A stretch of 63,926 nucleotides of DNA, counting the filler, from Hausera hauseri (lineage: Eukaryota): NCBI GenBank assembly GCA_046269625.1. It is 12 parts of 12 records of this genome, joined end to end, with 100 filler letters (N's around TTAATTAATTAA, not from the genome) between each part and the next. Parts side by side here need not be neighbours in the genome. Positions count along the whole stretch, not along the records: positions 24,324 to 29,606 come from JBJURY010290725.1; positions 29,707 to 33,907 come from JBJURY010704438.1; 10 more parts are not named here. One strand, written 5' to 3'. A model generated the notes under the pieces. That model was not told where the DNA came from. It did no database searches and was given only the letters and a program-made list of their open reading frames with translations. Shown one piece after another: positions 1,040-44,290 of this stretch (positions within the stretch are counted from its first letter, which is position 1; every line of letters starts with the position of its first letter). The position numbers and the translations under genes were made by a program.

Positions 1040-1517
1040 CACATTGTGAGAGGTTTTGATTCTGCCACTCATGCCTGACGGTTTGCTGCTATGGCATGAT
1101 TTTCGCCAAATGAGTCGTTTTCGTGTCTGTGCTGTAATTCAGAGCCGTTTCAATGAGTGCTTTGATACTGCATAGACTGGTGTTGCCTTCGATTTTGACA
1201 CTGTTCAGAGTCAGTGAAGTCTCCTGGAACAGTGTGAGGAAAAGGTAATTGGTCGGAGTGACAGTGTCTGTTGTTGCGAGAACCGTTGCCGAATCTTTTT
1301 TAACAATGACTTTTGCATAGAGTAGTGTATCGTTCAAATCCAGGTATTCATTATCCGATGCCATAATGTTGAACTGAATATCAATGTTATCGTCCGTTGA
1401 AATAAAATCAACGGGGTAGATTTCCTCAAATGCCGCATTGTCAATAACAACTTGTGGCACCACTTTGTCAAATATACACAATTCAGATTTTGCTGATGCC
1501 GTTTGTCTGTCTGTCAA
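1040..1517 (-). pseudogene. Polinton/adintovirus major capsid (hexon-like) protein, N-terminal part, interrupted by the TIR
   Basis: AKSELCIF..VPQVVI...FEEIYPV..IQFNI...EYLDLNDTLLY..K and NYLFLTLF is the typical Polinton MCP N-terminus. A frameshifted continuation (RQA*VAESKPLTM) runs up to 1040. Confidence 0.8.
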
Positions 1518-1860
1518 TCAATCGAAACTCCTACGACGACGACGTTTGTTTATAGTTGATGAGGTCGATGATGCTCTACGGCGTTTTCTCAAGCCATTGC
1601 CAGCGAATTGTTTTTTGAATGATTTAACGACTCCCGATGCAGCGCCTTTTATTTCGAATAAGGCGTATTCCTTCAGTGATGGTAAAATCGATTTGTTTTT
1701 ATATAGTACGACCTGTGCTGTTTTTGCTGCCACGGCCCCAATACGTTTCAACAATGAAATGCTAAACGTGCCAATGTACGCAACCATCCAGAGACATACT
1801 GTTTACCAACGAAATACGACAGTTTACCGCCCTGTTGGGCTTTACTGTAAATGGAAGCGA
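1518..1860 (-). pseudogene. Basic core protein (pVII/pX-like) of the Polinton
   Basis: An upstream frame reads QQGGKLSYFVGKQYVSGWLRTLARLAF and frameshifts into ORF 1518..1787, which ends in an Arg-rich tail. It lies between penton and hexon. Confidence 0.6.
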
Positions 1861-1868
1861 TTTTAGAA

Positions 1869-2937
1869 TCAATCATACTGTTGTTGGATTCGACGGAAAT
1901 AAAGAGTTAGACTGGCTGTGGTACCGTAAGGAAATTCAATAAGGTAGCCCGCGTCACATCGGATATTCATTTCAACATTGTTTATAGATGTGGATGCCAC
2001 GGGTAGGTACATTGGATTATCGAGCTTGACAGTGACATTGTCGCCGGCAATACACTTGCTGGTTTGCGGATAAAGTTCTCGGAGTAGTGGTACATGTACT
2101 CCATCGACCAAAATCGGTTCGGTGACGTTCATGTAAATGTATATTTTATTTAGTCCCGTTTTCAGTTCGGGTTTGAGTGTTGCAACATGCGCCACCGCCG
2201 CCTCAAACCGTTGTTTTTTAAAACCCAATACCATGGCCAAAGCTTTGTCCAATGAAATGTCGACAATATCCTTAGCCAGTTCAAATTTAATATACCCATT
2301 TGCATCTGACTCGAAAACTTTAAATATCGCCTTGTATTTTTGATTTGACGAAAAGTGTTGACAGAGACGTGCTACAGATTCGCAATAAACATTGTCTCCA
2401 ATCGATACGTATGACGTTAACACCCTTTTTGTTGCATAGGTAAATTTCGCCGTTGTTTGGTAATATATGGGACTTAATCGCGGACCAACTACATATTCAC
2501 TTTTAATGTTTACCTTTGTACTCTGTATGTTTGAATCCAAATTTCTGCGCCATCTCAGAGGACTCAAATGTAACGGTAAATTCAAAATCTGCCATAAAAT
2601 ATAAGTTTCGATCTATAATAAAAACACCGATCTTGCCGTGTAAACTGTAATTTGCTTCGGTCGTGCAAATGGCCGATTCTCCAACTGATATTTTATTGTC
2701 AGTAAGTGTCAGAGGACAAGAATGTGTTTTGGTTTCAGCAACAGTCTTGTTGTACGTTATTTTCATACTACCTTTCAGTGTCACCGGTGCGTAGGGAAAG
2801 TTAAACTCCGTCATTGCAACCTCCCATTTTCCAGATAAATCCAAAGGATTGTTCCAATCTACAACGTATACACTGGCGGAATTGTTTGGATGAGTCGTTG
2901 GACAAATGTTGCTCGTCAACATTATGTAAATACTCAT
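1869..2937 (-). pseudogene. Minor capsid (penton-like) protein 1, one frameshift near 2530-2580
   Basis: N-terminus IYIMLTSN..HPNNSASVY....PLDLSGKWEVAMTEF; C-terminus IYIYMNVTEPILVDGVHVPLLR...PMYLPV...INNVEMNIR.DAG..I.F..G...LTLYFRR. Confidence 0.8.
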
Positions 2938-3072
2938 TCTGATTTAGCGGATAGACCAGGGGGCGGGGATTTTCCAAACCTACCCAAGCTGGGCGACGAT
3001 GTGGACGGCGTGGAGGCGACCGCGGTCTACAGTCATGATGTTGATGATGATGGTGATGACGCAGTTTGTTTA

Positions 3073-4137
3073 TTATCGACGACGTCGAAAATGTAACGTC
3101 AAATGTGTCGTTCACCCAAACAGAAATTTAATGGGTTCCAAAAATTCATCAAGCATATACACGGGAATACTGTGCACAATATTGTGAGACAATGATAAGT
3201 ACGTGGGTCTGAGCATATTAATGCAAACAGTTTTACCCGATGTTTTACACGTGTCAGAATCTCGTTCGACAGAAGCCAGTAGTCGTTTACGTTTTCCACC
3301 TACGAGTACGGATTCGGTTAAGTCCATTAAAATGTTGATTCTATGAAATGCTACATATAGTTGCAGTTTGTATTTGGTAAGAATAGATTGTTCAACAATG
3401 GTTTGATAGAATTAACGTTTTGCAAAACCGTGATTCCGAGCCAATAATTCATCAAAGGCAAAATATGTTACATTGTCATGTAGTGTAAGCAAAATGTGAC
3501 CATCTGCTTTTATTTCACATGTCTTTACAGCCAATGTAGCTGTTTTCTTGACGTATTCACACAATTCCAGTTCCGTTTCCATTAATAAATTGTGTGGTAT
3601 AATATAGGAGCGGAAGACTGCTTCTGACATAGTCCACTTTACAATAATATCAAATTCCGCATCGGATGAAAGGTCCAATTTTTCACCAATTATAACATGT
3701 CCACCTAACCGTAGACCTTTTGAGTGTGCATTGACTGATTAAAAACCCAATGCCTGAGCATCAGCTATAGATTTAAAATGCATTTCAATTGGATTTCGAT
3801 GTAATAGTTTCATACTGTAGTTTGAAAAATAAGAATAAACCGGTAAATATTGTCTCAAATAATTGCGAAGTGTATATCGGTTATTGTGTCGGATTGTCCG
3901 CAAACGACTTGAAATGTGGTACGTTTCTTATCGGGTAAAATAAATACCACTGTTCTGACGTATTGTCATTGGTGAAAATTTAAATGTGAATACCGTCAAA
4001 GCCACTTCCCAGGCTCCCTGGCGTAAATCGACCGATTGGTCCAAGTGCATGGTAAAGTGTGCAGCGGTATTGTCATTGTCGTCATGTTGTGATAATGATT
4101 TGTTACTATCAACTAACAAGTAAATGCTGCTGCTCAT
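3073..4137 (-). pseudogene. Minor capsid (penton-like) protein 2, several disruptions
   Basis: N-terminus IYLLVDSN....NTAAHF..HLDQSVDL.QGAWEVAL; C-terminus DLTESVLVGGKRKRLL...PTYLSL...IPVYMLDEFLEPIKF..G*TTHLTLHFRRR. The two-block pattern matches penton 1. Confidence 0.7.
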
Positions 4138-4189
4138 TGAATGTGTGATGCAAAAATCCAACTCGGTGCAGTGTATCCGTGCCACTTAT

Positions 4190-5123
4190 GAGATATTGTT
4201 TATTCAAACCTTTGCCACGTGAACGTACCTGCAGTTCCTGTCCGTAGAATTTACCGCGTATTTCCTCACCGTTTTCATCCTCTAAAACGTACATGACAGG
4301 TGTTTGTTTTGTGTTAATTGCCACAATGCGGAAAACCTCGTCGCTTCAGTTCTGGTTGAAATTCTTAATGAATGGCGTCGTACTTATTTTCGAAATACGT
4401 ATGTAGGCACCGATTTTATATTTTGGGCGATTAATTGCCTGTCCTTGTGTTCGGTTTTGATAATGCCACATGTCCAAATTATCGATTACGTCAACCGGGC
4501 GCATTCCGTTGATTCCACGATGTGTCGAATAATTGTATGCATGAATAATATCCGGCAGTACATCTGCTCAACGTTTGTTGCCTTGTTTCGTAAAGAATTT
4601 GTTTAGGTGACCGCGCAATATTCGATTAAATCATTCAACGAGTGCAACCTTGTATTGGGAAAACACGGAGTAGCGGTTTACGCCAAACCGTATCAAGACC
4701 GCTGCAACGTGGGCGTTGTAGAATTCCTTACCCAAATCCGTTTGTACATGCTTCGGCTATTGTTGTTGTTGTTTTATCAGTGTCTGAACAGCGTCGTCAA
4801 TTTCTTTACCGGATTTAGATTTCACGGCAATTGCACGTGCAAAACGACTAAACACACCAACGCATATTAGCACATACCGATACCCATCGTTTATTCTAGC
4901 GTACGGAATCATTTCCATTAGATCCATTTGCCATACGTTATTTATACCGCAGCACGATATGCACGAGTTCGAAACCGCCTTCTTATCGGTTTGTTTAGGC
5001 TGTATGCTAATTGTTTTCCGAGCCAACGCTGGGTCTGTTGCCGAGTTTTTTTACAGTTTTTGCCAGTTTGTCGACGCCAGTATACCCTACGGGATGATAT
5101 GGATCGAACCACACGTTGCCCAT
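4190..5123 (-). pseudogene. Polinton retroviral-like (DDE) integrase
   Basis: WFDPYHPVGYTG, VWQMDLMEM...YRYVLICV.VFSRF, VQTDLGKEFYN, VE*FNR.LR and the C-terminal YVLEDENGEEIRGKFYGQELQ, spread over several frames. Confidence 0.85.
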
Positions 5124-5266
5124 CGTTGTCGTCGATGGTGCCGGTTTTGCTTGCGTTACAACAATTTGAACAAAACGTAAATGAAAGATACTGTAAACTG
5201 GGACAGAAGAATGAAAACCATGCACCCATATCGCAAATCACCATATACTTACCGCCATTGTTTATA

Positions 5267-5590
5267 CTAAACTGTTCCCCCAATGAGTCCACCCAGTAAT
5301 GACGTGACAATCGGTAGAATTGCACCAATGAATCCTCCGTCTTGCTGGTACATGATATCTCGTTTCAGTCGTTTACTACGAGCTTTGGAAAGGCCAATGA
5401 GTCGTTTTCTATACTTTAGTAAATTCCGCTTTCCACTACCAATGTCAACGTGGCCCACAACGATATTGTACAAAATTTTCATCAAATCGCCTACTACAAA
5501 TTGCTGAAATGATCGTAGCATTTTTCGCTTATGTCTCGTAGGTGCCTTGAGCAAAGCAATAAAGTACGGCTGACTACGTTTGAATCGCAT
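5267..5590 (-). CDS. Small basic virion core protein with a GGF cleavage-like motif and hydrophobic C-terminus
   Basis: Intact 107-aa ORF, K/R-rich, ending QQDGGFIGAILPIVTSLLGGLIGG. This is the pattern of the small ORF next to the ATPase in adintovirus-like elements. Confidence 0.65.
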   Translation of the reverse strand: MRFKRSQPYFIALLKAPTRHKRKMLRSFQQFVVGDLMKILYNIVVGHVDIGSGKRNLLKYRKRLIGLSKARSKRLKRDIMYQQDGGFIGAILPIVTSLLGGLIGGTV

Positions 5591-5734
5591 TTGCGTCTAG
5601 TTGCTGCTGCTGTTGTTTGAAGCACAGAATTGATTAATCGCTTGACTGTAGCGGTTCATTTAAATATACGTTTCTTGCCGGACACCCGCTTGGCAGGTTT
5701 ACGTTTAACAATTGTTTTCCAAAAATTCTTCGTT

Positions 5735-6398
5735 TTATCACTATCGTGTCGTCGTCGATTTTCGAATGTGTTTATAGACACATACGCCTTTCTGATTGAA
5801 AATGTCCGTTCGTACATGCATGTCATCGGTATACTGTTGTATAAAGTCAATGAGCAAGTATCCGTGTGGCTCGGTGGTAGCTTTATGATATGCATCTATC
5901 AAGTAGGCTCGGTTGTAAGGAAATTTTTGTCGTGCAACATAATCAATCGCGGGGATTTTTGAACAACACCAAATAGTGTACGTTTAGATTTTTTGTTCGA
6001 TGCTGTCCGACTTGATGGAACATGTTTAGCGTAATAAAAATAACTGTCACACCACGGTGCCGTGCAATCTTTGTGAACAGGTTGTTGAAGTCCGATTGTT
6101 TCGTGGCTTCCTGAAATATATCGTCAATGACAATAATGTCACCGTTGAGTAATCCCTCTGACCAGTTTTCATCAAACCCATCAATTACCGTTATCGTCGA
6201 TGATTTCAATTTACAAAATTCCCGTTGTGTCAAACCGGACTCACCATCATCACCAACAACTTGATGCCAGTATATGTGATTGTACCGCGGTAAATGGAAC
6301 AGGTCAAGGTAATTCTGCAATAGTTTACACACAAAGTGTGTTTTTCCACTTCCACTGGGGCCTACAATCTGGAAAATTGCATCATTCTGCAGCTTCAT
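5735..6398 (-). pseudogene. A32/FtsK-like packaging ATPase
   Basis: Walker A GPSGSGKT, Walker B IIVIDD, LFTKIARHRGVTVIFIT.N.F and YLVLFKNPRD. A frameshift near 5945 leads into AY..AT.EPHGYLLID. Confidence 0.9.
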
Positions 6399-6481
6399 CT
6401 AAATAATACAACCTTTCCTCACATGATTTGTTTATAATCATGTTACATATAAATAGCTATAGTATAAACACTGTTTCCATA

Positions 6482-6942
6482 ATGTTAGCTAATATCAACT
6501 ATCGCGGACGTGATACCGAGTGTATTAATACACTACCATTTAATCAATGGAAGCCGAGGCAGTATGTCTTCAAGTGTACACCGGATTTTACGTGTATCAT
6601 ATTTCAATCGGGCAAGTGTCGAATAATGGGTTGTCGCAAACCAATCACAATTAACAACAGTAAACTACTGCCATTCGGAATTGTCATTGACCAAATTTAA
6701 TCAATAACGGTAACGACTCAGTTTGACTGCCATCAATCAATCTGTACAAATTAGCAATGGCCACTGAATGTACGTATGAACCCGAACTGTATCCTGCACT
6801 GCGATTGATATTGTTTTGCCCACTTTGTTTCAATGTGTTTAGCAGTGAAAAAATTGTTGTACTCGGTATTCGGACAGTGGACCATGAACCGATTATTAAA
6901 TAAATTAAAAAGCATATAAACAGTTTTAGTGAATCAAAATAA
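6482..6942 (+). pseudogene. TBP-like gene, copy 1 (premature stop at 6698, frameshift near 6725)
   Basis: Repeat 1 is TCIIFQSGKCRIMGCRK. After the disruptions the sequence reads LPSINLYKLA...CTYEPELYPALRL....LCFNVFSSEKIVVLG, matching the TBP motif YEPELFPGL..R......LIF.SGK.V.TG. Confidence 0.8.
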
Positions 6943-6959
6943 TGTACGATATTATTCCA

Positions 6960-8335
6960 GCAGTAATGACTGTCGATCCCAATAATATAGTCGATGTAGA
7001 TAAAATGACTGATACGATGTTGAAGGTAATTGCTAACAAAGTAACAGCAGAAAGGATGAATGAAATTTTACAACAATTGTTCTTACTAGCCCAAGATACT
7101 AGTCCTGTAAAAAAATAGCCAGGACAGTTTTAGCCAAAGCTACTGAAGATGAGAAAGGAAGAAATGAAACTATCAGGATAACGGTAAGAGAAGGAAACCA
7201 AGATATGAGGGTCATCAGGATGAACGAAACAGATGACATACAAACTCTACGAGACAAGATAGAGGAGTTGAAACCATTTTACCAATGAAGTCCTTATGGA
7301 TTAAATTATTATGGAAGGACATTATATAATTATGATAGGTTATTGAGAATTGGATGTAGAAGTGAGAACTAGAATCCGATAACTATAACCGAAATACATC
7401 CAGAGGCGAGAGCACGGGCAACAGTGGATAATGTCTTAAGGGAAATAGAACCACAGGGAGTAGAAGAAAACCCCGCAGGCGATACGCAAGACGTCACAGT
7501 TCAGACAGAAGCTAACGGAAGAGGTAGGCCAAAAGGAACGAAGATAAGTGACATTCGCAATAAGAAAGAAAAACGAAGAAATAGTAAGACGCTTATTGTT
7601 AGCAGGAACAAATGGTACTCTCGAATCGGTGGATATAGACCCATTACTAAGAACTCTACTGGCTAAGTTACATATGTCATTTGCCTCATTTGATATGCAG
7701 GTAATAATCCCAAACGAATTATTCACAATATTACGTAATATTATGCTACAAATAAGTTGACAGTTCTATGAGAATTTAGATGAAGAACGGATTAATGAAT
7801 TGCATCAATTAAATATCTTAGAAAAATGTTCGCAACCGGAATCGCGGGAGAGAAAGCTCAAACGGCTATATCCTATCTCCTCTATAAAATAATAGTAATT
7901 AATCACCAGACTCAAAATCTAGAAGAAATTGATCGAAATATAAAGACACCCGTAAAGATTTTGAAAGAAACGTTAGGAAATTGGGTTCAATGTAGAGGTG
8001 AATGGCTGACCAGCCTAATGAAATATATAGTGAGGTCATGGGAACGAGAAAGATTAATAGATACGTCAATGGCGACGCAACCAAACACCTCTAGACCAGG
8101 TATAACAGGTACGTCAATAATGGAGATTCTTCAAATTCTCCTAATAACGTAATTATTAATGCCAAAAGCCTTGGGTATAGTAGCTTATGATTGCTCTAAA
8201 CCTAGTAAAGGACAAAAGTATTCTCTAGTTGATTTAAACAAGTGTTCAGAAGACGACCCGGAACAGCTAACAACGACAAGTGGTCTTACCTACTGGGTAT
8301 ATCAAGAATCGGAATTCATAAAAGCGAAAATTAGA
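6960..8335 (+). mobile_element. Fragment of an env-bearing retroelement-like polyprotein (Ubl domain, AT-hook, internal signal peptide, glycoprotein N-terminus)
   Basis: Ubl-like pattern at 7170-7395, GRGRPKG near 7520, then hydrophobic ILQILLIT*LLMPKALG followed by IVAYDCSKP...YSLVDL.KC. Homologous to 43160..44290. Confidence 0.6.
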
Positions 8336-24223: not shown

Positions 24224-26295
24224 NNNNNNNNNNNNNNNNNNNNNNNNNNNNNNNNNNNNNNNNNNNNTTAATTAATTAANNNNNNNNNNNNNNNNNNNNN
24301 NNNNNNNNNNNNNNNNNNNNNNNATTGTAAAACTGAATTATTCATTAGAAATTTATTATAAAAGTTGGTATAACAATTATCTCCTTCACTCATTAAATGA
24401 TTCTTCATTTCATCCTTTTTTGAATTTCCTGATTTTTTGCTCATTGTCTGTCTAATATCACTGCATAGTGTTTAATACATTTTCAAACTTATTTTTATTC
24501 CACTTATACACTGAAAAAGAATAAATCTAGTAGTAATATCACGCAGAATTCCAAAACAGTTTAATGGGACAGAAAATATGAAACTTAGAACGTAATAAAC
24601 TTATCACAAACGTAAATGCATATCAGGGTGTATGTCCCAAAAATTTGAATTATTTAATCAATAATCTTTGTTTGTATAATGCCTATCAGAATTACTCAAC
24701 AGTTATAAACCTCCAGTTTAAATTATCAATCAATACAGATGGATCAGAAAGAATGTAGTTAAAGCAGTATGATTAAATTAAATATACAATTGTACAATTC
24801 AACTTCTATCCTTTTTATTTCATCTCCAATTTACAAATTGAAGCTATATTCACAATGTCCAATAAAAACAAGTTTAATGCTGAATGTTCGTTCGAAATTA
24901 TAAAATGCCTTCTAGATATCTATTAAGTCTATTTTATGACAAACTTTATTTCAATAATAATTTTCCCTCGATACAGTAACTGGTTATTAAAAATTGATAT
25001 TCGAGATTTTAATCTGGTACAACGTACTTTGTCTTCATTAACGACCATACATACATTAATGGAATTTCAATTGAGAACGTAAGCAAAGTAGATTTTAATG
25101 ACAAGACTGCCATTTAATTTAATAATGGCATGTTTCGAATTTGGATCGATAATTCAGTGATTTCATAAATTCTGAATTGCCGTATGCAGTAGTCAGTATA
25201 TAATTTTGATATTAGCTAAGACGTATATTAGTGGCTGTGAATTGAAGTTTTTATGTTCTTACTACGGGTTAAGCCGTGGATTTTATTTTATTCAAAAATT
25301 GAATACAATAACAGATATGTGAAGGTAGACGTTGAGATTTATCTTGCGCTGTTTTAAAGCATTTAATTAAGCACTGAACTGATTGTTTCGTTAAGAAAAA
25401 TTGTTGAGAATTCGCGATTACTGTGATGTTAATCATTAGTATTTGTTGATAAAAGGGCATAAGTCTAGACTAGTTGCACTAGTCTGACTTTCATTTTTGT
25501 TAACTGCGCGCGCGGCGAAATTAAAATTAGCATAAATTTTTCATTCGCGCCGGCGCTAATTTTGATGTTAGATAGGACAGTATAAATATCAATGCAAAAC
25601 TAGATGAAAGAGCAGATAATTTCTATAATAGAAATTCGCGGAAATTTATTTGTTAATAAGAAATTGTTGGAAAAATTTCTATAACAGAAATTTACTGGAA
25701 AAAACTTTAATTGTTAAGTAAGTATTAACAAGCTACATTTTTGTTGTATTTATGTTTTATTCCTATATTGTAGTTTTTATTTGATATTTAAATTAAATCT
25801 TAATAATTCAGTTGTTATTTTATTCTAAAAAATAAAACATTGAAGCACAACCTGCAGAGAGGTTGTAGCTAATTAAACACTTTTTACTTCCTTCAACAAA
25901 GTATTACAGCATTATATACAATTAATTGAAATATATTGGAACCCTCAGATTTGAGTTTTATAAGATATTTTCAGCAAAAAGAGATCTTATAAGAAACAAT
26001 ATATTCATTGAAGTGAATGTGTTGGCGATTATAAGTAATAAATTTTATTTCAGCAAGTGTGAAAATTTCAGCAACTGTAATTTCAATTATTAAATGATTT
26101 ATTGGATATTATGTTTTGTATGCTACTAAAGAACATAGTTCATGATATATTTTATTTATTTGCGCGCATAACAAGATTAATTATCAATATAGATAATCAA
26201 ATTGTAGCAAAAACTAACGATTGTGACAATTACAAAAATTCAAGTTGGACATAAGGATTTTTCCATAAAATTAATTAAAATACCAATGCCACTAA

Positions 26296-27190
26296 AGTAG
26301 TATAAAAATGCCGGTTCTGGCTCACCCCCCCCAAGCAGCCAATCCAAAGCGTGCTTGAGGCGCACACCCGCACGGACGGACAGATTCGACGACGTAGATT
26401 TCAAAAAACACACCATACACGGTGCATGGTGCACCCCGGAAGCAGGAAAAGTGCACGGAAAAAGCGAATATAAGAAGGAAGTGGTGCACGGTCATGTGTG
26501 GCACATAGAAATGATGGGACAGCAATGGCGCATCAAAAGCAGAAGGACCGAAGTCGATGGAATGTCGGGCGGAAGCAAGCGGCTCGGGCAAAAAGTGAGC
26601 CAGAACCGGCATATGGTTTATGGGGAACTGGAAAACGATGAAGGCGAGCGGGCAGCGGTCCTACGGCAATTGGGCAGCGACTAGTCGAACCGTACCGGAG
26701 CGGAAGGTGCACGATGCACCGATGACGTCACAGGCGCCCGTGTGTGTGTGCACTGATAACGGCGGCCGGTGTCGAGTCGCATATGGAACAAAAGCCCAAG
26801 GCGCGGGCTATCGCATGGCGGTGTCCGAATGGAAATCGGCCCATCCGGAACGGAAATGAGAAGAGAAACATCGAAAATCGGCAAAGGGTATACCCTATGG
26901 AAACGGAAAAAATTTTTGCCTCGAAATTCAACATAACCGGGTTCAATCGATCGGTCATCGGTTACTGATTATGGATATATGTATTGCAAAGTTTTTACGC
27001 ATCTCCATCAACGTACAGAAGAGGAAAAACGAATTTTCTACGTACATGTGAACTTTGAACACGTGAACTTTTATGCGGTTTTAGACAAATATTTGCGGTA
27101 AAAATCGATTTTTGTGCGTCACACACATACGCATAAAAATATATATAAGGCACAAGAAAAAGTAAATGAGAGCAATAATATGATTTCAAC
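26296..27190 (+). repeat. Polinton-type terminal inverted repeat, copy 2
   Basis: Starts AGTAGTATAAAAATG at an abrupt switch from AT-rich to GC-rich sequence. Collinear with the reverse complement of 150..1039 and with 33615..33907. Confidence 0.8.
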
Positions 27191-27605
27191 AATAAATTAT
27201 CGTGGTTATATACGTGGAAAAGTTGAACATTTACAATTCAATCAATGGAAACCGCAACAATGTGTACTAAGATTGGACAAATATACTTTGATTATTTTCA
27301 AAAATGGTAAATGTAGAGTAATGGGTTGTAAGCAACCAATAGATGAAAGGGAAATATGTATTACCAAGTATAAAATTGTAGTCATCATTGAAAGAATTCA
27401 ATCAATAACGGTTACATGTAAGTTGGGTTTACCATCAATAAATTTATATAAATTGGCAGGAAAAATGGATTGCATATATGAACCAGAATTATTCCCTGCT
27501 TTACGAATAAATATGTACAGACCGTTGTGTGTAAATGTATTTTCCAATGGAAACATAGTCATTCTCGGATCACCGGAAAGGCAGCGACCAATAGGAGTGA
27601 AATAA
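27180..27605 (+). CDS. TBP-like protein, copy 2 (141 aa, open, final helix apparently replaced)
   Basis: Two TBP repeats: TLIIFKNGKCRVMGCK and IQSITVT..L....INLYKLA....CIYEPELFPALR......CVNVFSNGNIVILG. Confidence 0.85.
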   Translation: MISTINYRGYIRGKVEHLQFNQWKPQQCVLRLDKYTLIIFKNGKCRVMGCKQPIDEREICITKYKIVVIIERIQSITVTCKLGLPSINLYKLAGKMDCIYEPELFPALRINMYRPLCVNVFSNGNIVILGSPERQRPIGVK

Positions 27606-27675
27606 GTAGAAGTGAGAGAGAGAGAGAAAATGAATTATAAATGCATTGATTTTCTAAGTTAAAATCATTTTTAGA

Positions 27676-29138
27676 ATGACCGATTTAGATTGTAACAGTA
27701 GTGACGATAACGAACCGATTGGAGGAGTGAATACTGAATCAATAAATGAACAAATGCAAAGCCACAACTATTGCATAGCAATAGGGCGCAATTATTTTGA
27801 GAACAACAAAGACGAATTTATGAAATATTTCGAGAAACAAGTAATTTATATTTATAATTGTTTATTATTAATTTTATTAAATAGGTTACTTATGTATGTG
27901 GCCAACTTGAAATAAGTTAAAACGGATGGGAACATTATCAGCTATACATAAACTTTAAAAATGCCAAGAAAGTATCAGCAGTAAAGAATAAATTTCGTTG
28001 CAAATTTCCGCGAATAATTTTTGCGAAGAAAGTGGAAAGTGCCATGCAGTATGTCATGGACCCCAAAAAAAGAATCGAAAATACGACCTTCAAATGGCCA
28101 GATAATGGTGAAGGCAAGAGAATAACTAAATATTATTCCAATGACGTAAACGAAGATGGCAGCATTAACAAAAACAAAATTGGAGATTATTCACATGACG
28201 CAAAGAAGGAAAGGATATTGATAGATGCTTTATCGCAATCTAGCTTTGACGAGTGCATTTCACACATTGAAAGTGAAATGCCACTTGAATTTTGTTATCA
28301 TCAAAAACAGTTCGAAAGTTATGCAAGTAAGAAATACATTAAAGAGGATGACAAATTCTTTAGATTTAATTGGAGATATCCGTTAATAAATTTACAGAAC
28401 AAAATGAAAAACGTTGCTTTGATTGGACCACCTGGAATTGGCAAAACTGAATATGCCAGAGCTCATTTTGAGCATCCCCTAATGGTCAATAGTAGACAAA
28501 ATTGGGGAAGATACAAACATGGCTACCACGATGGCATTATTCTCGATGATGTACCCCTGGCAAACTTCGATCCACTAACGGTCAGAGGTATACTTGACTA
28601 CATGCATGACTATACTATCGATATCAAATATGGTCATAGCTTCATACCGCATAATGTTAAAAAAATTATTTGTAACACAGATCTAAAAACGCTATTCCCA
28701 ATCAAATCTACCGAAAACGAAATAGAAGCAATAATGCGACGTCTCGATATATACGAATTCAAAGAGACGATATTCGTAACAACAAAATATCCAACATTAC
28801 AATTGGCTTTACCTAAGCCAACGTTAGATTACAATGGAGTCAAAGTACGAAGTTCAGAGTGGTTGAAAAATACGGTTACAAAATGTAAACAACCGGTTTC
28901 CGATAATAAACTTGTTCAAAGTACGTCGAATGAAGTTAATCAAATAAACGAAATGAAAGATACATTGAATAAATTGATGATTCAAATGAAATGTAGGAAA
29001 CGAAAATGTAATGATGATGAAACTCTATCTACAACTACAACTACGAAACATTCGAAACGTGACAGTGATTGTGATGACGTTGATATTGACAAAGTTTTTA
29101 TCAGTAGTGATGATTCAAATGATAATAAATGTAATTGA
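27676..29138 (+). pseudogene. rep: CRESS-DNA-virus-like Rep (HUH endonuclease + SF3 helicase), two exons (27676..27840, 27885..29138), single stop at 27918
   Basis: After removing a 44-nt GT..AG intron: motif I-like NYCIAI, motif II GQLE...G.EHYQLYINF, motif III-like QYVMDPKK, Walker A GPPGIGKT, Walker B IILDD, motif C IICN and Arg finger AIMRRL. AATAAA follows the stop. Confidence 0.88.
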
Positions 29139-31654
29139 AAAATAAAAATAAATCTCAGAAATCGACACCGTTCTTCTTCCCTCCATAAAACTTCAAATGT
29201 CACAACCGTATCTTATTTCTGCATTGTTTTTGTGTTGACTGCTGTCTCTGTCTTCCCCATTTGTCCCATGAGACCCTGCAGAGGTCAAAGTTCACAAAAG
29301 TCTTGAAGTCAGTAAATCAAGAGAAGCCCGGGGTGATGTGAAGAAAGGTGAGTCAGATGTCCAGCATGAAATCTCCAGGTAAACTACACCTGTACAGGCC
29401 AGCAGGTGATCTACAGCCACATAACATGTTAACTACAAGTTTATTACGTGTCAACTACACATTTATAACATGTTAACTACCCGTTAAGATGTTACAGGTT
29501 TTACAGTGGTGACCTCATATTAGCATAGCTTTTCAGGTTTAAAACGTGCTCACTACAGTTCTACAATGTGTTAACTACATATTTATAATGTGTGTTAAAG
29601 GCATAANNNNNNNNNNNNNNNNNNNNNNNNNNNNNNNNNNNNNNNNNNNNTTAATTAATTAANNNNNNNNNNNNNNNNNNNNNNNNNNNNNNNNNNNNNN
29701 NNNNNNCACCTTCTGATAGGTTTGTTTGCTCGTTCTAGTCCATCACATCTCGAACACCACACCACACTGGAGCTCACAGATAAGCAATAAATTGATTTAA
29801 AGATAAAAGACGTTCATCGTCATATTCCAGTACTAATTCCGCCATTAATGAATATATGGCCTTACTGTTCCATCTTGCAGAAGAAGCATTTATATGCTTG
29901 CGTGGAATGTTTATGTATATCTTTTCTCCGGTCTTTTTCAATTTTCTTACAGCCTTAGTAAGTTCTAGTAGGTAACGATAATCATCACTGCTTGGAAGAT
30001 CCTGAAAATTAACTGGTAATCTTTCTGTTTCATAATATTTATTTCTGTAATGGCTCTATTTTTCTTGAAAAATTGTAAAAAAAAATTATAAGAAATATGT
30101 GGACTCGTTGTTTCTGATTTCCCCAACAAATGCTGAATTTCAAATCGTGCTTTAGAATCAGATATAGTATATGCAATCTACACTGTTCATAAGTAATATA
30201 TGGAAACCGTTTTGTTATTATTGTTAATACTCTGTTTTTTGAACCAGTATGTGTAGGTTCCGTGTCAGAAACAATTTTATCGATGTCACATTTGCTAGTA
30301 ACTGATAGCAGAAATTCAACAATAGTTGTTCAAATTCCACTAGTTTGTTATGTACTCAAACGGTACCATCTCTCGTTTCTGACCATAAATATTTTTATGT
30401 TGCTTCATGTCAAAGTACAAATTGTGGTTACCAACATATAGTGAGATCACCAGAAACGTGCTCAAGTGCTTTTCGCGAAGCTCGTTATAAGGTACCCCTG
30501 GATGGTGTTATAGTAATACTGCAGTAGGGGAAGTGTTAGCGACACCGTACTTCTCTGATGGGTCAGTTGACCAGTGAGCACTCCACCGCACTTCTCTGAT
30601 TTGCTATTTATAGCATTTTGAAAATTTTCTCACGACCTCCTCCCCTCTCCGCGGGAACAAACTGTGGATATCGGACCGACTCAGATTGGTAAAGCTTGAC
30701 GAGCTGAGCAAAAGTTAATAGCCGTGCGGCTTACAGAAATGTAAGGCAGAGGCGCTATAAGAGGAAAAAGCAAAGCAGGAAATGCTCTACGTGTAACGCA
30801 AAACATGTTGCTAGCACTGAGAAAATGTGCACAAAGGGTAAATCGATGTTGGCGAATCCAATGGACACGGTTCCAACTCAATCAAACCATGGGAACATGG
30901 GGAAAAATCAATGGTAAAATTTTAAATGGGGGAAAATTCCCCTTACACAAGTCAAACGGCGGTGGAAATGGGTTGAGCATGTAGCCCATCAAATGTTGAG
31001 CATTTTATATTATAGTCGCCATACGATCAGACGAAAGGATCCAGGTGAAAATGGCAACCGAACGAACAAACGAATTGAAAGAACGCATCAAAAAATTCTG
31101 TCATAGTAGAGAAGAAGAGCGATGTGGACAAACCTGGGGGCAGGTCCACCCACGAACCGATTGACTAATCAGAACCGGCTCGCATCCTGATTGGTCAATT
31201 CAACAACGGCGAGTTCAGTGGTGCGGTCGCATTTTGCGTCTCGAAAAAGACAAAGCCGGGAAATGCAAAAGAAAAAAGCCAACTTTTTCCAGAAGCAAAA
31301 TTTGAGCATGGATGGATAGGAGAAAGTGTACAGTAGAGTATGGGGGTTCGAATGATGTAGGAAACATGGGGTTTGCATGTCTAGGAAAAGCTGAAAAGTC
31401 GGTGAAAGAGAATAAGAAGAAGAAAATGTGGAGTTGTTGGAAACGCAAGTGAATCCATTGATGTTGGCGCCGGTAAATGATCAAATCATCGACAACGGCG
31501 AGTTCAGTGGTGCGGTCGGTTTTGCGTGTCGCGTCGCAGAAGACAAAGCCGGGATACGACGAGTTGACACGTGCAATGGTGAGGCGTGACGTGAAACAAG
31601 TGTGCGTTACCCGCCAGACATGCCTGCATACAAAACGAAATAATGAGTTGTGAC

Positions 31655-31885
31655 GTATTCGGACTCAGCGGAATGAGTTGGGTGGAAAAAAATTTTTTTT
31701 GACTGACCCAGTTCCGGATAACTGCATATTCGGACTCAGAGGAATGAGTTGGGTCGAAAAAAATTCTTGGACTGACCCAGTTCTGGACAACCACATTTTC
31801 CCACCTATCTGACTATAATAAACTTTTCAAAAAATTTTTGTGACCCAGTTTTCGGACAACCACATTTCCCCACCTATCTGACTAT
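31655..31885 (+). repeat. Short array related to the 68-bp minisatellite at 39088
   Basis: ttcggactcag.ggaatgagttgggt.gaaaaaa...gactgacccagtt occurs twice, followed by a duplicated ggacaaccacattt.cccacctatctgactataa. Confidence 0.7.
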
Positions 31886-33614: not shown

Positions 33615-33907
33615 AGTAGTATAGAAATGCGGTATCTGCATCATCCCCCCACCCCAATGCAACTAATACGAAGCGTGCTTAATGCGCAGACAGGCAACGG
33701 GTTTGTCAATTCGGCGACGGAGATTTCAAAAATCACATGGGGGAAAGGTACATGGTGCACCCCGGAAGCTGATGAGGTGCACAAAGAAAAAGCGAATGTT
33801 AGAAGGAAATGATGGATGGTGACGTGTGACGCATAGAAATGATGGGACACGGATGACGCATCAAATGCCGAAGGAACGAAGTCGATCGGATGGAGCGCAG
33901 TGGCACG
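33615..33907 (+). repeat. Polinton-type terminal inverted repeat, copy 3 (cut by the contig end)
   Basis: AGTAGTATAGAAATG...aatacgaagcgtgctt...ggtgcaccccggaagc, collinear with 26296 onward. Confidence 0.8.
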
Positions 33908-34031: not shown

Positions 34032-37000
34032 ATGTGCGGTTCCTATGCTTATTGCACATCCAAAGCACATAATCCGCAACAGTGCCATGAAACGATGCAT
34101 CGGTATTATGGATACAAATCCAAAAAAATCCAATATTATATATGTCCAGGATGCGAAACTGTATGCGGTGCAGATTACATACAGTTCTGTTATGATCACA
34201 AACATGATTTGAGTCACTTTGCATCAAAATCAAAGAACGCCATCTATAATGAGCAACATAATATTCACGCATCTGCTTCGCAGTATGATGCTTCGCAGTG
34301 TTCTGCCTCGCATTATGCTGCTGAATCTGGTGCAGCATCTGCGAAGCATATTAGAGAATTGAAACGCGCAGCCGCATCATGCGCAGCAGCATCAGGCGCA
34401 GCAGCGTCAGGCACGACTACATCAGGAGTTGTGGCTCCAACAAAAAGTCAAAGACAAAGGTCAGTTAATGCTGCAGAATTAAAGAGAAAAGTACGCAAAT
34501 ACGTCATTGATGCAGCTGGTCAAACAACCATCAAGGATTTTCTGGAGTACAAAGAGGAATAAACAATAGTGATTTGCCAGGAAAACATAGCTGAGCTCAA
34601 AGCCCTTAAGGTCAATATGAAACTGGAGGTCTCATACATCAATGTTGATGGCTAACAATCCAATAGGGCCTTCAACACCAAAAAATAGGCCATTTTAGAA
34701 GCCACCAATATAGTAGAACTACTTCATAAAGAGCATGCGAAGCTGATCCGCGAAGTCGGAGAGAGCCAGGATAAGAAAAGCGGATGGACCCTGGCATCTA
34801 TCGGGAGATTTCTTGTGTATGTTCAAAAGTACTGTCCAATGCGGGGCAGTTCATATATTCAGCTTCCGAAATGAATCGCTAATAGAAAAGCATGCATGAA
34901 TGTCATTAATGATGACAAGTGTTTCATATATGCCATTTTGTGTAAACTCGTACGGGATCAAAAACATGCAGCAGATTGAATTTGGCTATATAATAATCTG
35001 AAACACAACTATGACTTCCAATATATTAAGTTCCCGCCATCCATAGATGAAGTAAAGAAGTTCAGTCAAATCAACAATATATCCATCAGCATCATTAGAT
35101 TGGATGATGAGGACAAACTCTATCCCCTGCAGATATGCGATACTGAATTGGCAAATCATAGGGACATGTTCCTACTAGATGATGGTGAAATGATGCATTT
35201 CTCCTGGAAAAAGAACTTCGAACATCTAGTCAGATCCCAAATAACGAAACATACGGAAAGTATCGAAATATGTAAAATATGCTTGTCCCATTTCAGTGGT
35301 TATACTGCAGTGGACAAGCTTTCACAGAACAAGGTGTACTGCAACAACAATTACTGTATCAGTCCAGAATTTCCACAGGAGGACTACATTGAATTCAAGA
35401 AGTTCGAGAAGAAGCACAAGGTCCCAATAGTTATCTATTGCGACTTTGAAGCAATCCTGCGTCCAGTTCACAGTTCTCAACAGAGCAGCACAACTGCATA
35501 CCAATATCATGAAGTCTCATCGTATTGCATGTATGCCAAAAGACTGGACAGTGAACCATATTGATGTAGAGGTCCATATGCAGCATCCCATTTCATAAAA
35601 CGACTCGAAGACATGGCTCATAAGCTTAAAAACATGCTGCAGCAGTATAAGGATAATATAAGCATGTCGTGGAAACAAGAAGAAAAATAGCGCAACGCAA
35701 CAGAATGTTACTTGTGCGACAAGTTCTTCACCAAGGAAAATTGGAAAGTCAAGAATTACTGCCATTTTACAGGCTAATATCGGGGTGCAGCATGCAACAA
35801 CTGCAATATTTACTGCAAAACATGCACATATGTGCCTGTAGTGTTCCATAATCTCCGTGGCTATGATTCCCATTTCATTGTTCGGGAACTGGGCAGTACT
35901 AATAAAACATTGAGGTGATCCATAATAGTGAGGAAAAATACATCATAGACAGTTTCCGTTTTATGTCGTCTTTACTGGATAGTTTTGTGAAGGACCTCCA
36001 TGCAGAAGAACTCAAGGAGGCGAAGCGGTTCTTTCCCACTGCATTTGACCTAGTCAACAGGAAAGGCGTGTTTCCCTATGGCTATATAACTTCATGGGAA
36101 ACACTGGATGAAACCTCACCGCCGGCCAAGAAGGACTTTTGCAATATACTCTCTGATTGCGATATCAGTGATGCTGACTACATGCATGCTCAGAACGTCT
36201 TGCATGCATTCCAATGCCGAACAATAGGGGAATGCATTGATATTTACTTCAAGACGGACGTGCTGCTGCTGACAAATGTCTTTGAGAGTTTCAGGGATGT
36301 TACAATGAAGAGCCATGGATTGGATCCGGCTTATTTCTTTACAGCTCCAGGGATGAGTTGGGAAGCAATGCTGCGCTATAATGGTATTAGGCTGCAGATC
36401 ATTAAGGATTATGATATGATCCTCATGCTTGAGAGAGACATTAGAGGCGGAATATGCCAGGACATTCATCGGTATAGCGAGGCCAATAACAAGTCTATGG
36501 TCGAATACGACTCAACAAAGGAATTCTCATATATATCATACCTGGATGCCAACAACTTGTATGGATTGGCAATGGGCGCCCCATTGCCATATGATAACTT
36601 CAAATTGGTCGCGAATCCTGAAAACATGCCTATACTAGACCTAGATCCCACTAGAGATACGGGGTACATACTGGAGGTAGATATGGAAAATCCGGCTTCT
36701 ATCCACACAAGGCTTTTCCTTCCGGAGAGCAAATCTCCGCTCCATGGAAAGCATAGAAAGCTGCTCTGTCATGTGGGTAATAGGGATAGATTTTTAGTCC
36801 ACTACATCAATCTCCAGCAGGCAGTTAGACATATACTTCGTATTACTAAGATCCATAGAGCCCTGCAGTTCAGCGAGTCCATGTGGCTGCATTCATACAT
36901 AGATCTCAATACGAAGCTGCGGACTAATGCCAAGAACGACTTTAAGAAAGATTTATTCAAACTATATAACAACAGCGTTTCTTGCAAGACCATGGAGAAT

Positions 37001-37722
37001 ATCCGCAACAGAATTTACATCGAACTGGTATCTGAGTGGAAGCGGGCAAAAAACTTATTGCCAAGCCTAACTTCCATAGCAGCACCGTACATGCTGAGAA
37101 CTTGGTCAGCACCCATATGCTGAATACAGCATTGCTATTCAACAAGCCCATGTACGTGGGTATGGAAATATTGGATCTATCAAAGACCTTGATGTACAGA
37201 TTCCATTATGATGTCATGGTCCCCAAGTTGAAGTCCATGCACCTGATGTATATGGATACTGATAGTTTCATCTACGAGATCCATACAGAGGACATTTATG
37301 AAGACTTTGCCCAATTGGCTCAACACATGCATACCTCGGACTATCCGAAGGATCATTCCAACTAATCAACTGCCAACAAAAAGATCCTTGGGAAATTTAA
37401 AGACGAGGTGAATCGGGCAATAATATCGAGATTTGTAGCTCTCGGATCTAAAATATATGTTCTAGATGCATGTAATCATATCAAAAAGAGAGCCAAGGGC
37501 GTTCAAAGGGCTACATTGACCAAGAAGATCAGTTTTTAGGACTACGTGAGAGTTCTGAGGGAGCAGACTCACATCATATCGCAAATGAGAAGGATCCCAT
37601 CTAGGGATCATAACATCCAAACAATAACACTGCTTAAGAAAAGCCTAGATAGAATAGATGACAAGAGGTAGATCCTGAGAGATGGAATTTATACACTACC
37701 TCACGGACATGTGGCATTGTAA
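34032..37722 (+). pseudogene. polB: Protein-primed family B DNA polymerase (Polinton/adintovirus type)
   Basis: SGWTL, GSSYI.LP, Exo motifs IYCDFE, FHNL.GYDSHF and DVLLL..VFE.FR, an inserted Cys/His module (CYLC...CHFTG.YRGAACNNCN), RKGVFPY, Pol A YLDANNLYG.AM, Pol B KL.NNS...KTMEN and Pol C YMDTDSF. Many stops and frameshifts. Confidence 0.93.
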
Positions 37723-39087: not shown

Positions 39088-40060
39088 ACTCACAAGGAGA
39101 ATGAGTTGAGTCTGAAAAAAGTTTTGGACTGACATTTTCAGACACCTGCATAATCAGACTCACCGTAATTAGTGGAGTCAGAAAAAATTTTAGACCTACC
39201 CAGTTTCGGATATGTGCATAGTCGGACTCAACGCAATAAGTTGAGTCGGAAAAAATGTAGTCTGACCCATTTCGAGACACCAGCATAATCGGACGCATCG
39301 TAACGATTTGAGGTGGAAAAATTTTAGTGGCCCAGTTTTGCAAACCTGCATATTCGGACTCACCGTAATGAGGTGCGTTTGAAAAAGTTTTGCAATGACA
39401 CAGTTTCAGATACCTTCATAATCGGACCTATTGTAATGAGTAGAGCCAGAAAATATTTTAGACCGACCCAGTTTCGGATACATGCATATTCGGACTCACC
39501 GTAATGAGGTGCGTCCGAAAAAGTTTTGCAATGACCCAGTTTCAGACACATGCATAATCGGACTTACCGTAGTGAGTGGAATCAGAAAATATTTTAGACC
39601 GACCCAGTTTCGGAAACCTGCATATTCGGGCTCAACGCAATGAGTTGAGTCGGAAAACATTTTAGAGTGACCCAATTTCGGAAGCCCGTATATTCGGACT
39701 CACCGTAATGAGATGAGTCCGAAAGAGTTTGGCAATGACTCAGTTTCAGACACCTACATAATCGGACTCATCGTAATGAATGGAGTAAGAAAAAAGTTTA
39801 GTGACCCAGTTTCGGAAACCTGCATAGTCGGACTCAACACAATGAATTGAGTCGGAAAAAATTTTTCAATGAGCCAATTTTAGACACCAGCATAATCGGA
39901 CTTATCGTAGTGATCTGAGTCGGAAGGAATTTTAGTTACCCATTTTCGGAAACCTGCATATTCGGACTCACCATAATGAGATGAGTCCGAAAGAGTTTTG
40001 CAATGACCCAGTTTTTGACGCCTGCGTAATGGGACTTACCATAATGAGTGGAGTCAGAAT
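39088..40060 (+). repeat. 66-68 bp minisatellite, about 14 units
   Basis: The gcata(a/t)tcggactca anchor recurs at 39148, 39216, 39283, 39348, 39416, 39484, 39552, 39620, 39688, 39756, 39822, 39890, 39956 and 40024. Confidence 0.93.
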
Positions 40061-40074
40061 GAGTGGACAGCTAC

Positions 40075-43159: not shown

Positions 43160-44290
43160 CAGGAGGGCATCACATTGTTCATTCTTTTTCGGCCGTTTTT
43201 CCTATCGACTTATTCAATTTTCCTTTCTTTAATAATGTAAGATGGCATCGATTCGAAGATACTTTCCAAGTCATTTTAGATTTTCCAGTATCGTATTTCC
43301 CGTTGTCATATTTACATTAACTCATAGTTGTCATGCGTTTAGTTTGCGAGTCGAATAATCCTTCATATTTCTTTAATTGAACTTGATAATCTTCGATGGC
43401 GGCTGTTCTTGGAGCGATTGTGCCTCCAACATCGTAGTTCACTCCTTTGCAAGTACCTTCCATTCTATCTATTCTTCCAGCTTTGAAGATCCGAATATAT
43501 TTTATTTTGCTTCGTACTGCCGGTATCTGTGGGTTTGTATCGTTCTGACTCCGATTTTAAACGCATATTGGCATTCTGCTTGTTATATTTTTATCGGTTG
43601 GAAAGTGTTGTTGGTTCAAGAATAGCGGTTTCACGAGTAATACGCACAATTGAATAAGAAGAATGATTTCTTTACGTAACATTCTTTAATTTTAACCTTG
43701 ATGAATTCCGATTCCTGGTAGACCCAATAACTGACCGTTAGTTGTTAGCTGTTCTGGGTTAGCTTCAGGGCATTTTTTTAGATCCACCAAGGAGTACGTT
43801 TGTCCTTCTTTAGGCTTCGAACAATCATAAGCCACAATGCCCATGGCCTTAGGCATGCAGATGGATGCTATCAATAACAATTGTAGTAACTCCATAACTG
43901 ACATTCCACCTAAGCCCTGTTTTATAACACTAGGTTGTATTGTGGTTGCTCTTTCGTATGGTCCTCCTTTTGGTTTTATTCTACCATTTATTAAACTTGG
44001 TACCCATCCTCCTCTGCATTGCACCCAGTTTTCTAAAGTATTGCATAAAATTTTAACCGTTACTTTATATTCCTTTCAATTTCCTCAAGATTTTGCGTCT
44101 GATAATTGATAACTATTACTTTGTACAATAAATAGGCAAGAGTTGTTACAACTTTTCTCTAGTGATCCCTGTCGCGAATATCTTTTCCAGTATATCTTGT
44201 TCATGTAGTTCGTTAATTCTTTCTTCATTGATATTCTCGTAAAATTGTCTACTAATTCTTAGCATGCCGTTACACATCGTCTGGAACTTG
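43160..44290 (-). mobile_element. Second copy of the env-bearing polyprotein fragment
   Basis: QCRGGW...MELLQLLLIASICMPKAMGIVAYDCSKP..GQ.YSLVDL.KC.E..PEQLTT closely parallels 7980-8335. Confidence 0.7.

Follow-up and report, generated by a model that had tools for sequence, protein, structure and literature searches.

A CRESS-type Rep gene beside the truncated TBP-like gene of a Polinton copy in Hausera hauseri: a probable insertion

Polintons and the known Rep elements

Mavericks, or Polintons (adintoviruses), most commonly end in (AGT)2 in vertebrates (PMC8097293), and their terminal repeats are put at 100-1500 bp (10.1101/2023.08.22.554363). HUH-type Rep proteins are found elsewhere. CRESS-DNA viruses (circular, Rep-encoding, single-stranded) have Reps, such as PCV2 Rep (PDB 7lar, 8xms), that join a Y1 HUH domain with an HUQ-type motif II to an SF3 helicase; PEVE, which also has an HUH+SF3 Rep, is linear and bounded by terminal inverted repeats; and Replitrons and Helitrons have HUH Reps in eukaryotic genomes. 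Replitrons are described, in PMC10288648, as lacking a helicase and having short direct terminal repeats, and Helitrons as having a Y2 Rep with an SF1B helicase and inserting between AT or TT. PIVE, an integrated relative of PEVE, is mentioned in another paper (PMC3198968), which also describes Rep sequences that have become endogenous within transposons or genes of the host. The subject here is a contig of Hausera hauseri (JBJURY010290725.1, assembly GCA_046269625.1) on which a Polinton-type terminal repeat, a TBP-like gene and a CRESS-type Rep gene follow one another. It occupies positions 24324-29606 of a 63,926-nt stretch of DNA, referred to below as the window and composed of 12 short contigs with spacers of N's between them; the focal features are all on this contig and on one strand.

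An original prediction made from the same DNA had described this series and had offered two chimeric readings of it, as a Polinton-like lineage with its own TBP and a Rep, or as a Rep-driven element on Polinton ends, together with the caveat that the Rep unit could be a secondary insertion. The anatomy is confirmed (a multicopy repeat starting AGTAGT, then a TBP-like open reading frame (ORF), then an HUH+SF3 Rep with one stop), and the caveat has become the best explanation. We think it probable (roughly 0.68) that a low-copy, PEVE-like Rep cassette was inserted into one Polinton copy, cutting its small TBP gene (mini-TBP) at codon 130, and that both genes are dead. A repeat that contains a dead Rep is no more than common genomic debris, and the reading as a chimeric virus does not stand. 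Two by-products of the analysis, a Polinton family that has both a mini-TBP gene and an ATAAAC box and the link of the Rep to PEVE, for the most part weigh more than the insertion.

The junction at position 27570

The plus-strand terminal repeat (26296-27179) begins with AGTAGTAT and is very high-copy. It has the (AGT)2 motif of Polintons at a multicopy terminus, where (AGT)2 or (AG)3 marks a Polinton end, and its length of ~890 nt falls inside the range cited above. The mini-TBP ORF (27180-27605, plus strand) starts at the repeat's inner edge, 38 nt downstream of a TATA-like box (27142-27149) that is its predicted promoter. It has 130 codons of homology (to 27569), followed by 11 unrelated codons and a stop, and its terminal helix is missing. 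That this TBP loses its last helix near 27570 had already been noted, and so it proves: homology stops at G130 (27569), and 28 of 29 aligned homologues extend 19-41 residues beyond that point. The Rep unit begins at the next base.

This base is also where depth changes. Contigs from four sequencing runs, X1 to X4, were compared with the window; X1 may be the source sample, and the shares of X2-X4 are small. Summed contig depth, which in all the figures given here differs from copy number, stands in X1 at 46,473-144,869 over the repeat, 64,587-73,672 over the TBP, 4-24 over the Rep and 3-5 over the unique left flank. X2 shows the same step (627-912 as against 0-3), and two X2 contigs diverge from the window at 27570 and continue with other letters. 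(A depth of 60 at 27687-28040 in X3 is not counted, being made up of short stretches that match the AT-rich intron and are loose at either end.) Nearly all copies of the repeat and TBP therefore continue without Rep. The original prediction had named just this as what would speak against it, and with the repeat and TBP three to four orders deeper than Rep in X1 it is largely what is found. Contigs do bridge the other junction, between repeat and TBP, with at least 31 letters on each side (one in X2, two in X3 and one in X4), and one X4 contig starts exactly at 26296, as is expected where many flanks meet one terminus.

Loci elsewhere agree. Among the best 80 of 129 loci with a TBP relative, drawn from metagenome contigs, a Rep profile finds no Rep, its six weak matches being A32 ATPases. 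The idea of a Polinton-like lineage thus stands as to a basal transcription factor of its own, the TBP loci carrying Polinton genes (see below), and is unsupported as to a joint lineage with Rep; the depth step, the 80 loci and the cut TBP lend no support to a Rep-driven element on Polinton ends either.

As to how such a locus might arise, the cassette, with its CCAAT and TATA boxes, spliced ORF and poly(A) signals, would derive from a linear Rep element bounded by inverted repeats that entered the germ line, and would have integrated probably by end-joining or by Rep-mediated nicking. That it hit a Polinton would follow from Polinton copies apparently forming much of this genome.

The Rep gene and its relatives

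The Rep unit is on the plus strand. Its first part (27570-27675) holds a CCAAT at 27588, a (GA)n run and a TATA-like box at 27636. Predicted exon 1 (27676-27840; 55 codons, with the motif I region) has modest support and is followed by a predicted phase-0 GT-AG intron of 44 nt that is 93% AT (27841-27884). Exon 2 (27885-29138) encodes HUH motifs II and III, an oligomerisation region, the SF3 helicase and a low-confidence tail, and is interrupted by a single in-frame stop (27918-27920). Two AATAAA poly(A) signals, at 29141 and 29147 (29141-29152), come directly after the Rep stop codon. The intron is likely rather than shown, because exon 1 raises the Rep profile score by just 7 bits and scores nothing alone. 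With its own CCAAT, TATA-like box and two AATAAA signals the Rep appears to be a self-contained cassette. Fusion of TBP to Rep by splicing was considered and dropped, no in-frame donor/acceptor pair being found by eye.

The protein has the Y1 HUH and SF3 helicase combination of CRESS-DNA virus Reps, including the HUQ-type motif II. Walker A and B, motif C and the arginine finger are present, and across 61 aligned sequences the helicase motifs vary little or not at all. PCV2 Rep is its best PDB match both by sequence and by fold, and its first match in the Atlas is a Cressdnaviricota cluster (0.97). Unlike Reps of those viruses it is not on a circle; neither a nonanucleotide origin in a hairpin nor a capsid ORF was found on the focal contig, where the 3' end of the Rep unit lies outside view. 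Identification as a Replitron is ruled out by the SF3 helicase, and no terminal repeats of the Replitron kind were found; identification as a Helitron fails too, the helicase being SF3 and not SF1B, and of the end criteria just the TC fits, with no CTRR|T.

Relatives are many and distant. Among 1.84 billion representative proteins 832 match at E <=0.001, none of them with more than ~34% identity over long stretches, and the ten best, when looked up, are all unnamed. The Rep sequence by itself gave no match in a word-indexed protein set and viral contigs, and an alignment gave one match in the protein set; there was none among plasmids, and one 976-nt contig among prokaryote genomes. Of 32 viral Rep loci, 28 are circular assemblies, as their direct terminal repeats show, and three have no terminal repeats; the best of them (L081) has inverted repeats of 243 nt and is the PEVE record. 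Its Rep is 28% identical to the focal Rep over 289 aa. In a maximum-likelihood tree of 35 rows, a subset of 88 (the focal Rep, 19 unnamed Reps, PEVE and 14 Reps from circular contigs), the focal Rep, PEVE and the 19 unnamed Reps are separated from the 14 circular-contig Reps by a split with support 100/99. A FastTree of all 88 rows has the same PEVE-side grouping at 92, joined by a few circular-side proteins. The reference rows carry no labels, so that no CRESS family can be named.

On this comparison the Rep appears to belong, distantly, to the PEVE group. A link to PEVE had been anticipated and holds up in the tree. PEVE, too, seems to carry a short GT-AG intron of phase 0, which separates motif I from motif II and lies some five codons from the focal intron site (56 nt, at 4028-4083 of L081; the 272-aa database protein begins after it). 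Only the Rep is shared, however, and the focal one has a stop. Several things weigh against the grouping: the focal Rep sits on a long branch and has no fixed position within the PEVE-side group, the 19 unnamed rows were picked as its own best matches, and neither the other ORFs of L081 nor an inverted repeat of PEVE type has a match in the window, a search limited by there being just 105 nt upstream of Rep in its unit. PEVE would nevertheless seem to have many distant unnamed relatives, one of them endogenous in an animal-like genome.

Insertion, false join or a composite element

Insertion into one Polinton copy has its own difficulties, besides the stated limit on depth figures. None of the 32 contig pieces among the matches listed (there are a further 11,656) bridges 27570. 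The missing TBP tail is not resumed downstream of Rep, although the tail profile does find the tail of a second TBP in the window (E 2e-4), and so there is no visible right-hand side of the insertion. The end of the contig (29242-29606) has zero depth in X1 (bins from 29280) and is matched by a 1,568-nt X2 contig, the first 786 letters of which have no match in the window; because X1 lacks these final ~365 nt and X2 has them, the contig may contain false joins. They are possibly foreign DNA joined on by the assembler, which would put the 3' end of the Rep unit out of view. (CpG is depleted there, and is equally low in many other 450-nt intervals.) With no bridge among the matches listed, no resumed tail and an X1-absent end, the adjacency of TBP and Rep rests on the assembly.

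The same facts would be produced by a short-read assembler working at low coverage, had it joined the repeat-TBP path at 27570 to an unrelated Rep sequence, in which case the parts are real and not adjacent. The shortness of the contigs (4-8 kb) and a unique depth of ~5 fit such an accident, as do the missing bridge and the X2-matched end. A bridge missing among the matches listed is not the same as no bridge, however, and pieces in X1 match the left flank (25959-26323) with 0 differences and the Rep (27782-29124) with 0-1, so that the two belong to one sample and have similar depth. Nested insertions, moreover, are common in the window, an example being the copy of the repeat that sits, at 1039, within another Polinton. 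We consider a false join unlikely, if not to be dismissed. A low-probability reading makes the Rep unit a rolling-circle transposon that encodes a CRESS-type HUH+SF3 protein and inserts in Helitron fashion, host A being followed by element TC. The junction does read A|TC, which recalls the insertion of Helitrons between AT or TT (PMC10288648), the depth of 19-24 over the helicase core exceeds unique depth and hints at a few related copies, and the Rep gene has a short AT-rich intron; yet chance alone would often match two bases, downstream there is neither a CTRR|T end nor a resumption of the TBP tail, the right end has no hairpin (z +1.39, as compared with -2.15 for the left end), there is no nonanucleotide origin in a hairpin, copy number is low, and an SF3 helicase fits neither Helitrons, which use SF1B, nor Replitrons, which have none (same source). 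It is improbable.

A minor but real lineage combining Polinton ends, TBP and a rolling-circle initiator would account for the common strand and contig and for the promoter boxes that each gene has of its own. Double-stranded DNA viruses have reportedly captured Reps (HHV-6 U94), and PEVE, the closest named relative of this Rep, is itself linear and carries terminal inverted repeats, so that recombination between two elements so bounded is conceivable. Truncation of the TBP at the very junction, the stop in Rep, a fall in depth by three to four orders of magnitude and the lack of Rep in all 80 TBP loci make such a lineage very improbable. No paper on a Polinton-Rep chimera was found in the open-access literature. 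A larger conjecture, to which we give little credence, keeps the insertion and builds on it: PEVE would be one named member of a clade, large and undescribed, of linear HUH+SF3 Rep elements that have introns and occur in invertebrates; these would be satellites of Polintons, living on them as AAV does on adenovirus, and would integrate into them; the host Polinton would have the switch described below, and the locus would be a fossil of hyperparasitism.

A Polinton family with its own TBP

The focal ORF, read from the ATG at 27180, matches Pfam TBP at E 9e-17, in two stretches. The model of its product has a pLDDT of 89.6 and TBPs as its top Foldseek matches, and a profile search of the PDB agrees. 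It has the two-repeat saddle fold of the TBP family (PF00352), with a TM score of ~0.65-0.7 and 22-27% identity to cellular TBP, from which it differs in length (~150 aa against a cellular core of 180 aa), in its shortened first repeat, in having no intron and in lying on a mobile element. The YEPELFP loop of the second repeat is retained, with two glutamates that are invariant in the alignment of homologues; in cellular TBP the second-repeat loop contacts TFIIB. Also retained are three of the four positions that we take to be those of the intercalating phenylalanines. Relatives (89 among 94 candidates) are mostly 145-170 aa long; the closest, P0003, is 77% identical and has a member of its cluster on a 14-kb contig. 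None of 135 candidates in viral contigs was confirmed.

Neighbouring genes in the 80 TBP loci were sought with profiles seeded by Pfam-labelled ORFs; seeds for the capsid candidate were chosen by size, position and mutual similarity. A32 ATPase is found in 29 loci, integrase in 17, the capsid candidate in 11 and protein-primed DNA polymerase B (pPolB) in eight, with at least one of the four in 36. The proportion with any of them is 26/36 among loci of at least 3 kb, 13/15 at 5 kb or more and 5/5 at 10 kb or more. (A further family beside TBP, initially taken for a protease candidate, was not protease-like on testing and was dropped from the counts.) pPolB and the rve integrase are absent from the focal contig, whose element breaks off after TBP, and both occur beside TBP relatives. 

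The best explanation of these neighbourhoods, judged from sequence, is that a high-copy Polinton/Maverick family carries its own mini-TBP gene and that the focal element is the end of one copy. Its relatives adjoin pPolB, rve integrase, A32 ATPase and capsid candidates as Polinton genes do, and what sets it apart is a TBP-like gene of ~150 aa, placed where the repeat ends on its inner side. Against this must be set the fact that the ~420-aa capsid candidates have no Pfam or PDB match. TBP in this class of virus is not wholly new, because Starrett et al. use the label 'TBP' in legends to their figures of MELD viruses (PMC8502044; 10.1101/697771). No paper on a TBP family of animal Polintons was found in the open-access literature, although Starrett et al. 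may have TBP of animal adintoviruses in their figures or supplements.

Two more copies of the terminal repeat lie in the window, one on the minus strand (144-1039; 80% identity over 911 nt, with similarity reaching 27190 in the focal copy and ending a few codons inside the TBP start) and one on the plus strand (33615-33907; 76% over 279 nt), cut by its own contig end. The flanks of the three copies are mutually unrelated. The second copy sits, at 1039, at the capsid-candidate gene of another, decayed Polinton. No contig spans both ends of one element, and inverted pairing of the repeat, a second end and a 6-bp target duplication lie outside what the contigs show; the TBP loci have no nucleotide match to the window's repeat.

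That decayed Polinton occupies the first contig of the window (1089-6930), with capsid candidate, integrase and A32 ATPase on the minus strand and a TBP on the plus strand. This second, broken TBP-like gene (6482-6930) is of another subfamily and keeps the terminal helix region; it stands head-to-head with the packaging ATPase (5946-6398, minus strand). A conserved ORF of ~170 aa without a Pfam match lies beside mini-TBP in up to 24 of the 80 loci (loose profile), with an N-terminal D-x-E motif and a C-terminal Cys/His cluster (examples are L010:2883-3404, L030:1795-2316, L032:3336-3857 and L035:5843-6352). It is a candidate partner of TBP in a transcription module. No TFIIB match by Pfam was found among the 104 + 30 neighbour proteins scanned, a subset of the ORFs.

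The ATAAAC box and a possible late-gene switch

To our knowledge Polintons have no RNA polymerase, and the timing of their virion genes is an open matter. In the TBP loci the hexamer ATAAAC was counted in the 100 nt upstream of predicted starts, after removal of duplicates, unclear starts and ORFs with short upstream sequence. It precedes 22 of 22 ATPase genes (shuffled mean 1.3), 12 of 14 integrase genes (1.2) and all four capsid candidates (0.5), as compared with 6 of 68 TBP genes (4.3) and none of four pPolB genes. In the window, the ATPase of the first contig is preceded by ATAAAC, which occurs nine times on the minus strand of that contig; ordinary TATA-like boxes, not ATAAAC, precede the focal TBP and Rep.

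This distribution suggests a late-gene switch encoded by the element. In intact members, mini-TBP would be made first, from an ordinary TATA promoter, driven by the host, at the terminal repeat's inner edge; its product would then bind the ATAAAC box and, through the conserved acidic loop of its second repeat, recruit host TFIIB and RNA polymerase II, so that the packaging, capsid and integrase genes might be switched on. The scheme as a whole draws on conserved residues and the pattern of ATAAAC boxes, and we lean towards it. The loci behind the counts are related, several coming from like samples, and the counts are thus non-independent, which tells against it. No paper on the box was found in the open-access literature. 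Mini-TBP and ATAAAC together would make a switch that is open to direct test, and through it one could ask if Polintons make particles.

Other features of the window

The other contigs hold decayed Polinton genes, pieces of long terminal repeat (LTR) elements and one DDE transposase, as befits repeat-rich eukaryotic DNA, probably of an invertebrate. At the left end of the focal contig (24324-24436) is another repeat end, with a summed depth of 195,232 in X1 and loose ends at 24436 in three runs. The seventh contig contains a broken Polinton-type pPolB (34980-37536), with no link to the focal element. Two related fragments (7799-8335 and 43692-44075) have weak matches to Monjiviricetes fusion glycoproteins (E 1e-3 and 6e-5, both below the cut-off) and are possibly envelope genes of LTR elements. 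A 68-nt tandem-like repeat family (39100-40070 and 31619-31830) adjoins a fragment of a piggyBac-type DDE transposase. In the second contig (9555-13993), fragments of cellular genes, all lacking introns, follow one another on one strand and partly share a single open frame; a CoA transferase, a helicase C-terminal domain and a kinesin motor are among them, and the series looks like a string of concatenated retrocopies or captured pieces of mRNA.

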